From Escherichia coli (lineage in GTDB: Bacteria > Pseudomonadota > Gammaproteobacteria > Enterobacterales > Enterobacteriaceae): a stretch of 64,000 nucleotides of DNA. The stretch lies in assembly GCF_044647545.1 (NCBI RefSeq), contig NZ_CP172818.1; one strand, written 5' to 3'. The translations under genes were made by a program, and so were the position numbers. Within the stretch, counting starts at the first letter, position 1; every line of letters begins with the position of its first letter. This document shows positions 3,808 through 59,208 of this stretch, piece by piece. The notes under the pieces are model-generated. The model saw only the letters and a program-made list of their open reading frames with translations. It ran no database searches and had not been told where the DNA came from.

Positions 3808-5622
3808 ATGTTAAATGCATGGCATCTGCCGGTGCCCCCATTTGTTAAACAAAGCAAAGATCAACTGCTCATTACGCTGTGGCTGACGGGCGAAGACCCA
3901 CCGCAGCGCATTATGCTGCGTACAGAACACGACAACGAAGAAACGTCAGTAGCGATGCATAAGCAGCGCAGTCAGCCGCAGCCTGGCGTTACCGCATGGC
4001 GGGCGGCGATCGATCTCTCCAGCGGGCAACCTCGGCGGCGTTATAGTTTCAAATTACTGTGGCACGATCGCCAGCGTTGGTTTACACCGCAGGGCTTCAG
4101 CCGAATGCCGCCAGCACGACTGGAGCAGTTTGCTGTCGATGTCCCGGATATCGGCCCACAATGGGCTGCGGATCAGATTTTTTATCAGATCTTCCCTGAT
4201 CGTTTCGCCCGTAGTCTTCCTCGTGAAGCTGAACAGGATCATGTTTATTACCATCACGCAGCCGGACAAGAGATCATATTGCGTGACTGGGATGAACCGG
4301 TCACGGCGCAGGCGGGCGGATCAACGTTCTATGGCGGCGATCTGGACGGGATAAGCGAAAAACTGCCGTATCTGAAAAAACTTGGCGTGACGGCGCTGTA
4401 TCTCAATCCGGTGTTTAAAGCTCCCAGCGTACATAAATACGATACAGAGGATTATCGCCACGTCGATCCGCAGTTTGGCGGCGACGGAGCGTTGCTGCGT
4501 TTGCGACACCATACGCAGCAGCTGGGAATGCGGCTGGTGCTGGATGGCGTGTTTAACCACAGTGGCGATTCCCATGCCTGGTTTGACAGGCACAATCGTG
4601 GCACGGGTGGTGCTTGTCACAACCCCGAATCGCCCTGGCGCGACTGGTACTCGTTTAGTGACGATGGCACGGCGCTCGACTGGCTGGGCTATGCCAGCTT
4701 GCCGAAACTGGATTATCAGTCGGAAAGTCTGGTGAATGAAATTTATCGCGGGGAAGACAGTATTGTCCGCCACTGGCTGAAAGCGCCGTGGAATATGGAC
4801 GGCTGGCGGCTGGATGTGGTGCATATGCTGGGGGAAGCGGGTGGGGCGCGCAATAATTTGCAGCACGTTGCCGGGATCACCGAAGCGGCGAAAGAAACCC
4901 AGCCGGAAGCGTATATCGTTGGAGAGCATTTTGGCGATGCACGGCAATGGTTACAGGCCGATGTGGAAGATGCCGCCATGAACTATCGTGGCTTCACATT
5001 CCCGTTGTGGGGATTTCTTGCCAATACCGACATCTCTTATGATCCGCAGCAAATTGACGCCCAAACCTGTATGGCCTGGATGGATAATTACCGCGCCGGA
5101 CTTTCTCATCAACAGCAACTGCGTATGTTTAATCAGCTCGATAGCCACGATACTGCGCGATTTAAAACGCTGCTCGGTCGGGATATTGCGCGCCTGCCGC
5201 TGGCGGTGGTCTGGTTGTTCACCTGGCCTGGTGTACCGTGCATTTATTACGGTGATGAAGTGGGACTGGATGGTAAAAACGATCCGTTTTGCCGTAAACC
5301 GTTCCCCTGGCAGGTGGAAAAGCAGGATACGGCGTTATTCGCGCTGTACCAGCGAATGATTGCGCTGCGTAAGAAAAGTCAGGCGCTGCGTCGTGGCGGC
5401 TGTCAGGTGCTGTATGCGGAAGATAACGTGGTGGTATTTGGCCGCGTGCTGAATCAGCAGCGTGTACTGGTGGCAATCAACCGTGGAGAAGCCTGTGAAG
5501 TGGTGCTACCCGCGTCACCGTTGCTTAATGTTGCGCAATGGCAACGCAAAGAAGGCCATGGGCAACTGACAGACGGGATTCTGGCTTTGCCTGCCATTTC
5601 GGCTACGGTGTGGATCAACTAA
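3808..5622 (+). CDS. malZ: Maltodextrin glucosidase (GH13)
   Basis: ORF 3805..5622 begins [10 protein letters not shown]; second ATG taken as start (604 aa); GH13 motifs [15 protein letters not shown]; C-terminus intact, TAA at 5620-5622. Confidence 0.93.
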
Positions 5623-5659
5623 CTGTTTTATTTATTACGTCGTATCACCACCCTACACT

Positions 5660-6734
<1,075 letters not shown>

Positions 6735-6735
<1 letters not shown>

Positions 6736-7361
6736 CAGTTGCGCATCCCAGAGGATAAGAAGGAAGAAGATAAAAGTGGGAGAAGCGCCTTGCGTGACGC
6801 CTGCGCCATCATCCGCGGATAAAACTGCCAGAAGCGGGTTTCGAGGGCGGCATAATGTGCGTTTAAATCGTACCAGGAGTCACGCAGGGCATCCAGACGT
6901 GGGCGACGGCTTGCCATGCCGTTTAACACGTTCTGGATGAAATCCATATCGCGATAGCGCACCAGCCACTGCTCTGACCACAAGTAATTGTTCAGATTGA
7001 TAAAACGTGGCGGTGAGTCCGGCAAAATCGTCATCACTTGCTCGCGGGCATAACAGACAAATTCCTGTAGCGGAAAGTCCGGCGACAGCTGCGACCAGTG
7101 GCGGGAAAGAAAGTGATCCCACATGACATCCAGCGTAATAGGCGCAACGCGGCGCGTTTCACTACGAAACCATTCCCGTGCTTCGCGGACTTCCGGCAGA
7201 TTGTCGGTTAGTACATCAATGCGCCGATGCATATGAATGCCAGCCACGACGTCGGGCGGAAAACTTTCTTCAGGATTTCCGCGTACGAAATCAGCCAGTA
7301 AATTGCCGGAAAGCGAGCTTTCCGCGAGATGGGCTAAATGCAGGTGAGCTAAAAAATTCAT
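6735..7361 (-). CDS. acpH: Acyl carrier protein phosphodiesterase; ORF here is 208 aa, about 15 aa longer at the C-terminus than the 193 aa I recall
   Basis: N-terminus [32 protein letters not shown]; ORF continues past ...ASRKAL as [15 protein letters not shown] to TGA at 6735-6737, running into the AT-rich block. Confidence 0.85.
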
Positions 7362-7453
7362 CGATTATATTCTATCCAAAGGGGGGTAAAGGTTGCAGGG
7401 AGAGCGCCCCGGCACTAGACTACCCGCCTCTTATTTTAGTCTGAGTCAGTGTC

Positions 7454-13046: not shown

Positions 13047-13394
13047 ATGGCTATCATCCCAAAAAACTATGCGCGCTTAGAAAGCGGCTATCGCGAAAAA
13101 GCATTAAAAATCTATCCGTGGGTCTGCGGTCGCTGTTCCCGCGAGTTTGTTTATTCCAACCTGCGTGAACTTACCGTTCACCACATTGATCACGACCATA
13201 CCAATAACCCGGAAGATGGCAGTAACTGGGAATTGCTTTGTCTCTATTGCCACGATCATGAGCATTCGAAATATACCGAAGCGGATCAGTATGGTACGAC
13301 CGTTATCGCAGGGGAAGATGCGCAGAAAGATGTCGGTGAAGCGAAGTACAACCCATTCGCTGACCTGAAAGCGATGATGAACAAGAAGAAGTGA
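13047..13394 (+). CDS. yajD: HNH nuclease family protein YajD
   Basis: 115 aa with HNH motif (CGRC...HHIDHDHTNN...CLYCHDHEH). Confidence 0.9.
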   Translation: MAIIPKNYARLESGYREKALKIYPWVCGRCSREFVYSNLRELTVHHIDHDHTNNPEDGSNWELLCLYCHDHEHSKYTEADQYGTTVIAGEDAQKDVGEAKYNPFADLKAMMNKKK

Positions 13395-23719: not shown

Positions 23720-25168
23720 ATGAAGTTTATCATTAAATTGTTCCCGGAAATCACCATCAAAAGCCAATCTGTGCGCTTGCGCTTTATAAAAATCCTTACC
23801 GGGAACATTCGTAACGTTTTAAAGCACTATGATGAGACGCTCGCTGTCGTCCGCCACTGGGATAACATCGAAGTTCGCGCAAAAGATGAAAACCAGCGTC
23901 TGGCTATTCGCGACGCCCTGACCCGTATTCCGGGTATCCACCATATTCTCGAAGTCGAAGACGTGCCGTTTACCGACATGCACGATATTTTCGAAAAAGC
24001 GTTGGTTCAGTATCGCGATCAGCTGGAAGGGAAAACCTTTTGCGTACGCGTGAAGCGCCGTGGCAAACATGATTTTAGCTCGATTGATGTGGAACGTTAC
24101 GTCGGCGGCGGTTTAAATCAGCATATTGAGTCCGCGCGCGTGAAGCTGACCAATCCGGATGTGACTGTCCATCTGGAAGTGGAAGACGATCGTCTTCTGC
24201 TGATTAAAGGCCGCTACGAAGGTATTGGCGGTTTCCCGATTGGTACCCAGGAAGATGTGCTGTCGCTCATTTCTGGTGGTTTCGACTCCGGCGTTTCCAG
24301 TTATATGTTGATGCGTCGCGGATGTCGTGTGCATTACTGCTTCTTTAACCTTGGCGGCGCGGCGCATGAAATTGGCGTGCGTCAGGTAGCGCATTATCTG
24401 TGGAACCGCTTTGGCAGCTCCCACCGCGTGCGTTTTGTCGCTATTAATTTCGAACCGGTCGTCGGGGAAATTCTCGAGAAAATCGACGACGGTCAGATGG
24501 GCGTTATCCTCAAACGTATGATGGTGCGTGCCGCGTCCAAAGTGGCAGAACGTTACGGCGTTCAGGCGCTGGTTACCGGTGAAGCGCTCGGCCAGGTGTC
24601 CAGCCAGACGCTGACCAACCTGCGCTTGATTGATAACGTCTCCGATACGCTGATCCTGCGTCCGCTGATCTCTTACGACAAAGAGCACATCATCAACCTG
24701 GCTCGCCAGATTGGCACCGAAGACTTTGCCCGCACGATGCCGGAATATTGCGGCGTGATTTCCAAAAGCCCGACGGTGAAAGCGGTTAAATCGAAGATTG
24801 AAGCGGAAGAAGAGAAGTTTGACTTCAGCATTCTCGATAAAGTGGTTGAGGAAGCGAATAACGTTGATATCCGCGAAATCGCCCAGCAGACCGAGCAGGA
24901 AGTGGTGGAAGTGGAAACCGTCAATGGCTTCGGCCCGAACGACGTGATCCTCGATATCCGTTCTATCGATGAACAGGAAGATAAGCCACTGAAAGTCGAA
25001 GGGATTGATGTGGTTTCTCTGCCGTTCTATAAACTGAGCACCAAATTTGGCGATCTCGACCAGAGCAAAACCTGGCTGTTGTGGTGTGAGCGCGGGGTGA
25101 TGAGCCGCCTGCAGGCGCTCTATCTGCGCGAGCAGGGCTTTAACAATGTGAAGGTGTATCGCCCGTAA
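23720..25168 (+). CDS. thiI: tRNA 4-thiouridine synthase ThiI
   Basis: 482 aa; THUMP, PP-loop SGGFDS and C-terminal rhodanese domain with catalytic Cys (LWCERG). Confidence 0.96.
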
Positions 25169-58142: not shown

Positions 58143-58166
58143 AACCCTCTCCGCCCGGAGAGGGTT
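58143..58166. terminator. Bidirectional hairpin terminator between convergent ybaY and atl
   Basis: Near-perfect 11-bp stem aaccctctccg/cc/cggagagggtt; overlaps the atl stop codon. Confidence 0.7.
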
Positions 58167-58554
58167 AGTAGTTCCAGCGATAACGCTGCAAGTCGATTTG
58201 CCCGCTTCCCGATACCATCACACCTTCTGCCAGTAATGCCTGTCGTTGACGCTGTAAATCCGGTCCGGTTAGCGAAATTGTGCCGTGGCGATTAACCACC
58301 CGGTGCCAGGGCAAGGTGCTGCCTTCAGGGAGACGCTTTAACACACCGCCCACCTGGCGCGCGGCGCGGGGCGATCCTGCCAGTTTCGCCACATCACCGT
58401 AAGTGGTGACATAGCCTTCGGGAATAGCGGCGACGATTTGCCAGACGCGTTGGGGAAATGAATCTTCTTTTTCCATCTTTTCTTCCTGAGGTAATTTTTC
58501 AGCATAATCTGGAAAAACGCCCGAGTGAAGCCGCATTGCGCAAGAAACCAGCAT
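58165..58554 (-). CDS. atl: Alkyltransferase-like DNA-binding protein Atl (YbaZ)
   Basis: ORF 58165..58575 trimmed to MLVSCAMRLHSG (129 aa); methyltransferase-like fold lacking the active-site Cys (PWHRVV). Confidence 0.88.
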   Translation of the reverse strand: MLVSCAMRLHSGVFPDYAEKLPQEEKMEKEDSFPQRVWQIVAAIPEGYVTTYGDVAKLAGSPRAARQVGGVLKRLPEGSTLPWHRVVNRHGTISLTGPDLQRQRQALLAEGVMVSGSGQIDLQRYRWNY

Positions 58555-58630
58555 CTGGCACGCAATGGGTTGCAATTAGCCGGGGCAGCAGTGATAATGC
58601 GCCTGCGCGTTGGTTCTCAACGCTCTCAAT

Positions 58631-58744
58631 GGGGGCTCTGTTGGTTCTCCCGCAACGCTACTCTGTTTACCAGGTCAGGTCCGGAAGGAAGCAGCCAAGG
58701 CAGATGACGCGTGTGCCGGGATGTAGCTGGCAGGGCCCCCACCC
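58631..58744 (+). ncRNA. ffs: 4.5S RNA (signal recognition particle RNA)
   Basis: 114 nt gggggctctgttggttctcccgcaacgc...cagggcccccaccc recognised as E. coli 4.5S RNA; -35 TTGCAA (58571-76) and -10 GATAAT (58593-98) upstream, consistent with a processed 5' leader. Confidence 0.93.
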
Positions 58745-58854
58745 ATTTCTGCCTCCCCCCGTTTCGTCAAAAAATCCCAATATGGCTAAACTTTAACCAC
58801 AACTGACGTCGCAAGAATTGTCTGGCTGCGCAGTACGCTTCGGAGGTATGTCTG

Positions 58855-59208
58855 ATGAAGTATGTTGATGGTTTTGTGGTTGCCGTTCCTGCCGATAAAA
58901 AGGATGCCTATCGGGAAATGGCTGCTAAGGCTGCGCCATTGTTTAAAGAGTTTGGCGCGCTTCGTATTGTCGAATGCTGGGCCAGCGATGTACCGGATGG
59001 TAAAGTGACCGATTTTCGTATGGCGGTGAAAGCGGAAGAGAATGAAGAGGTTGTCTTTAGCTGGATTGAATACCCTTCAAAAGAGGTCCGCGACGCTGCT
59101 AATCAAAAGATGATGTCGGACCCACGGATGAAAGAGTTCGGCGAGTCCATGCCGTTTGATGGCAAGCGAATGATCTATGGCGGATTCGAGTCAATCATCG
59201 ACGAATAG
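58855..59208 (+). CDS. ybaA: DUF1428 family protein YbaA
   Basis: 117 aa, MKYVDGFVVAVPADKKDAYREMAAKAAPLFKEFGALRIVECWA. Confidence 0.9.
   Translation: MKYVDGFVVAVPADKKDAYREMAAKAAPLFKEFGALRIVECWASDVPDGKVTDFRMAVKAEENEEVVFSWIEYPSKEVRDAANQKMMSDPRMKEFGESMPFDGKRMIYGGFESIIDE

Follow-up and report, generated by a model that had tools for sequence, protein, structure and literature searches.

The 4.5S RNA gene ffs accounts for the atl–ybaA gap in an Escherichia coli chromosome, and an A/T-rich block between malZ and acpH is probably a sequence-reconstruction artefact

The gene ffs, encoding the 4.5S RNA of the signal recognition particle (SRP), is essential and has been characterised for decades. In E. 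coli K-12 MG1655 it is annotated as b0455, signal recognition particle 4.5S RNA, at positions 476448–476561 of the chromosome (NC_000913.3). The mechanism of the SRP is documented. Briefly, Ffh binds 4.5S RNA through its M domain, and in the early complex the RNA tetraloop captures the FtsY NG domain (PMC4737761, PMC11404819). The 5′ ends of pre-4.5S RNA, determined by RNA-seq, lie mainly at position −26 relative to the mature RNA and in part farther upstream, and the mature 5′ end (+1) is made by E. coli RNase P (PMC5499578; processing is also described in PMC7049720).

We analysed a 64-kb stretch of E. coli DNA, referred to here as the window, that is collinear with K-12 MG1655 from phoR to acrB. 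Of interest is a gap of 300 nt (58555–58854). A first-pass annotation, made from the letters of the sequence, had placed atl and ybaA on either side and both assignments were borne out by Pfam. On the left, atl (ybaZ; 58165–58554, minus strand) encodes an alkyltransferase-like DNA base-flipping protein of 129 aa. Its product matches DNA_binding_1 (E 3.9e-27) and K-12 ybaZ is annotated ‘DNA base-flipping protein’. On the right, ybaA (58855–59208, plus strand) encodes a DUF1428 protein of 117 aa (E 2.3e-48) and is annotated in both K-12 and the sister strain FDAARGOS_497. The border at 58554 uses the K-12 start for the 129-aa protein; the later start taken by PGAP (103 aa) would give a gap of 58477–58854.

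Aligned to the ybaZ–ybaA gap of K-12, the 300 nt are collinear column for column. There are three substitutions, at window positions 58564, 58758 and 58781, and these spare the RNA, the promoter hexamers and the leader. Positions 58631–58744 on the plus strand correspond to the mature 4.5S RNA, GGGGGCUCU...CCCCCACCC, and are 100% identical to K-12 ffs over all 114 nt. The same 114 nt had been named as 4.5S RNA in the first-pass annotation, and its borders proved exact to the base. The covariance-model search proposed there, for the Rfam bacterial small SRP RNA, did return a match. In a scan of the whole window, RF00169 (Bacteria_small_SRP) matched 58639–58735 on the plus strand (E 5.5e-13); its score of 68.1 bits exceeds the gathering score, which is 40. 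The match covers model positions 1–97 of 97 and equals the span annotated as ffs by PGAP in FDAARGOS_497. A permissive local scan of 58400–58950, with overlapping lower-scoring matches of the same clan suppressed, recovered the same core (E 4.8e-15). The sole other family in that scan was a chance match to mir-6302 (17.7 bits; gathering score 90). Elsewhere in the window, the clpX–lon spacer holds the second of the two Rfam matches at gathering score. This is sraA (RF02029; 40892–40987, minus strand; 106.7 bits against 56), a known small RNA of E. coli.

Of 5426 complete E. coli genomes, 5424 have the 300-nt gap (median copy number, one), and the annotation there is ffs. We conclude, with a probability of about 98%, that 58631–58744 is the single-copy gene ffs, whose 114-nt product is the RNA subunit of the SRP in E. 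coli. As part of this reading, the gene is predicted to have its own sigma-70 promoter, to lose a leader to RNase P and to act with Ffh and FtsY.

The RNA folds as one long hairpin (−57 kcal/mol), its 5′ and 3′ ends paired with each other, in which the minimum free energy (MFE) and centroid structures are the same and the 3′ ACCC is unpaired. Because the ffs sequence is GC-rich, the z-score of the fold against shuffles is a modest −3.15, and 2 of 200 shuffles fold equally well. The hairpin apex, UCC-GGAA-GGA (58680–58689), carries a GGAA tetraloop of the GNRA type at 58683–58686 on the plus strand, closed by the conserved CC-GG pairs. On either side are the conserved GGUCAGGUCC / GGAAGCAGCC internal loops of domain IV. 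The tetraloop is evident in the sequence, the MFE fold and the Rfam consensus. The apex aligns to the consensus GGAA and to the adjoining GUCAGG and AGCAGC motifs (GGUCAGG/AGCAGCC).

Transcription start, processing and function are expected to be those described in the literature for K-12 ffs, which is identical. The internal loops of domain IV would be bound by the M domain of Ffh, forming the SRP. The GGAA tetraloop would recruit FtsY, the receptor. The Ffh–FtsY GTPase dimer would then dock at the distal hairpin end, which would trigger GTP hydrolysis, upon which ribosome–nascent chain complexes would be handed over to SecYEG. The genes ffh and ftsY are located outside the 64-kb window.

Promoter-like elements had also been claimed upstream of the RNA, and a promoter scan agreed. 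The sole promoter-like site in 58400–58950 is TTGCAA-17-GATAAT (58570–58598, plus strand); the mean in shuffled sequences was 0.4. This sigma-70-like site has a −35 element TTGCAA (58570–58575), a 17-nt spacer and a −10 element GATAAT (58593–58598), followed by a GC-rich discriminator, GCGCCT. Both hexamers and the leader are the same in K-12. The main published 5′ end, at −26, equates to window position 58605, which is 7 nt downstream of the −10 hexamer. The geometry of the candidate promoter fits this main published 5′ end. The precursor would be transcribed from this site, starting about 26 nt upstream of the mature RNA, near 58605. The putative 5′ leader (58605–58630, plus strand), placed by identity with K-12, contains the hairpin GCGUUG-GUUCU-CAACGC at 58607–58623, with 6 bp in a fold of 58607–58780. 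RNase P would cut off this leader, so that the mature RNA begins at 58631.

The 3′ trailer and the ffs–ybaA spacer occupy 58745–58854 on the plus strand. Positions 58745–58780 are unpaired in the fold, and the substitutions at 58758 and 58781 fall in this segment. A simple terminator scan found no intrinsic terminator, defined as a canonical hairpin with a U-tract, on the 3′ side of ffs. The single terminator-like site, at 58622–58636, straddles the leader and the mature 5′ end; it is at chance level and was rejected.

The gap had been described as holding only short spurious ORFs, and this needs amending. Two ORFs reach into it, one of 60 aa and one of 112 aa, and the latter is not short, though we judge it spurious. 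It runs from 58458 to 58796 on the plus strand, through ffs and antisense over the 5′ end of atl. Were it a real protein-coding gene, the RNA match would be incidental. An ATG start and a length of 112 codons, beyond what ‘short spurious’ would cover, speak for such a gene, but a Pfam search of the product found no family and the ORF is annotated neither in K-12 nor by PGAP in FDAARGOS_497. It also overlaps, besides the antisense 5′ end of atl, a highly structured stable RNA, and accidental long ORFs arise in GC-rich sequence. We regard a protein-coding gene here as extremely unlikely. The gap might otherwise be a mere regulatory spacer, with divergent promoters for atl and ybaA and no RNA gene. 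The two genes do diverge (minus and plus strand, respectively) and at least ten spacers of at least 200 nt occur elsewhere in the window. This spacer-only reading is refuted by a full-length covariance-model match well above the gathering score, together with 100% identity to the experimentally characterised K-12 ffs, and its probability is negligible. For the RNA gene, four things are directly demonstrated: identity with K-12, the match to the covariance model, the hairpin fold and the presence of a promoter-like site. The ORF-free gap between atl and ybaA is fully accounted for by ffs. This is an already known, ordinary, textbook E. coli gene, and the result has little biological weight.

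The first-pass annotation had gone on to use ffs as a foil for ‘the other’ ORF-free stretch of the window, an A/T block, and held that the one showed something about the other. No such inference follows. Nor is the block the only such stretch; at least ten further intergenic gaps of at least 200 nt are present in the window, and three of them exceed the 300-nt gap. The block (5623–6783) lies between the malZ stop codon (5620–5622) and acpH. Its GC content is about 9% (1–14% per 100 nt), and its composition is 62% A, 28% T, 6.5% G and 2.7% C. The longest run of A is 32 nt, and 38% of bases are in runs of A or T of at least 6. As had been claimed, the block has no recognisable structured RNA: nothing reached its gathering score in Rfam 15, and the only permissive match, sn2524 (22.7 bits against 44, E 0.96), is at chance level. 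ARAGORN found no tRNA or tmRNA in the whole window. The block is not random homopolymer, however. It is collinear with an accessory ORF, of which it is a heavily degraded copy, and this had been missed.

The accessory ORF is intact in FDAARGOS_497 (NZ_CP033850.1). Without the block, the window is 99.986% identical to this strain over 57 kb, the differences being 2 transitions and 2 micro-deletions. The transitions, at 24626 (C to T) and 40613 (G to A), resemble ordinary strain-level SNPs. Of the micro-deletions, one removes 4 nt directly past the yajD stop codon (13394) and the other 2 nt within the yajO–dxs spacer (20446). In sequences of the FDAARGOS_497 type, malZ and acpH are separated by about 1.65 kb that include the intact ORF of 1446 nt, and TGATAAAAAATG and CCTACCATG are also present. 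The spacing in K-12 is 4 nt. The 1446-nt gene, annotated ‘hypothetical protein’, is found in 1128 of the 5426 complete E. coli genomes, FDAARGOS_497 included, where it occupies 2771690–2773135 (L001 1310–2755) between malZ and acpH. Its product, WP_022645275.1 (481 aa), matched no family in a Pfam search. The gene and its flanks (L001 1190–2775) are AT-rich, with a GC content of about 37%.

The stretch of the window that does not align to the sister strain is 5674–6783, with 1110 nt in place of 1596 nt. Even so, the block retains a clear relationship to the accessory gene. The local alignment score was 94, against 32 ± 3.8 for dinucleotide shuffles, and the global score was −212, against −540 ± 22. 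In the global alignment 87% of A and 60% of T were kept, while about 50% of G/C was deleted and about 22% changed to A, a pattern partly forced by composition. The lesion begins at the first base past the malZ stop codon, with a 5-nt deletion at 5623 and then four single-G deletions between 5645 and 5665. At the other end, the block destroys the acpH stop codon, expected at 6780–6782. The resulting ORF (6735–7361, minus strand) encodes 208 aa, compared with 193 aa, and has 15 extra codons. Two candidate origins were rejected. A foreign insert, resembling Plasmodium or Dictyostelium DNA, is at odds with the significant collinearity between the block and the accessory gene that sister strains have at this site. 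Simple dropout of G/C with length-preserving deamination does not explain a block that is about 490 nt shorter and has both deletions and changes to A.

The positions of the lesions are informative. Across this span, the alignment of FDAARGOS_497 with K-12 has exactly three structural breakpoints. These are malZ/acpH, yajD–tsx (where K-12 has 137 nt more) and yajO–dxs (where K-12 has 128 nt more). The three non-SNP lesions of the window, namely the block and the micro-deletions at 13394 and 20446, coincide exactly with these. In the window, the lesser length differences from K-12 (four 1-nt indels and one 12-nt indel) are faithfully reproduced. By our rough calculation, the chance of three random lesions each falling within 3 nt of the three breakpoints is about 1e-11. 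Since there is a lesion on every one of the K-12 breakpoints, a reconstruction artefact is therefore favoured over biology. We conclude that the A/T block is probably a garbled rendering of the inserted accessory gene, produced during sequence reconstruction. The cause may have been reconstruction on a backbone without these segments, for example a reference-guided consensus, that mishandled structural variants.

Could the block instead be genuine chromosomal DNA? It might then be a gene gained by horizontal transfer that underwent localised hypermutation or was purged of G+C, or else an unannotated non-coding element. In keeping with a natural origin, malZ–acpH is a known variable site, with only 4 nt in K-12, and the collinearity of the block with a real accessory gene located there means that it is not random filler. 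Against this, about half of positions differ inside the block, compared with 2 SNPs and 2 micro-deletions in the 57 kb outside. The lesion opens right after the malZ stop codon and removes that of acpH, and the block and both micro-deletions sit on the sole three structural breakpoints relative to K-12. A search of the 5426 complete E. coli genomes found neither the block (the best coverage of 5000–7400 was 54%) nor a full-length occurrence of either micro-deletion. An exact 36-mer of the block was absent from two large public collections, metagenome_contigs and genome_contigs (metagenome and GTDB-representative collections, respectively), and the public gene index has no entry for the exact 208-aa read-through AcpH. 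For the block to be natural, about 50% base-specific divergence would have had to arise over 1.6 kb, in a lineage that shows four differences across 57 kb. We know of no mutational process that yields such a pattern. A genuine origin of any of these kinds is very unlikely. Less likely still is the specific case in which 5623–6783 is real DNA and a horizontally acquired 1446-nt gene between malZ and acpH was converted in situ to about 91% A+T, most G and C being lost or replaced by A, in a lineage near-clonal with FDAARGOS_497. If true, this would be a localised mutational process not previously described. Taking the block as a probable artefact, the practical consequence is a data-quality flag: anything anomalous in this sequence should be compared with sister genomes before it is interpreted as biology.

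Returning to ffs, comparison with described SRP RNAs places it firmly among known molecules. The closest is K-12 MG1655 ffs itself, with an identical 114 nt and the same neighbours, ybaZ/atl upstream on the opposite strand and ybaA downstream. The only differences are the three substitutions, all in the adjoining spacer. With RF00169, a member of the SRP RNA clan CL00003, the gene shares the full model, the GGUCAGG...GGAA...AGCAGCC motif of domain IV and a long terminal helix. It differs from the family consensus in a few non-canonical pairs of the cmscan alignment, which correspond to internal loops already known in the E. coli RNA. The large bacterial SRP RNA (Bacillus-type scRNA) and the eukaryotic and archaeal 7S RNAs belong to the same clan, and their domain IV/helix 8 core binds Ffh/SRP54. 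Unlike the Bacillus-type scRNA, which has an Alu domain, the RNA encoded in the window is a minimal 114-nt hairpin without one.
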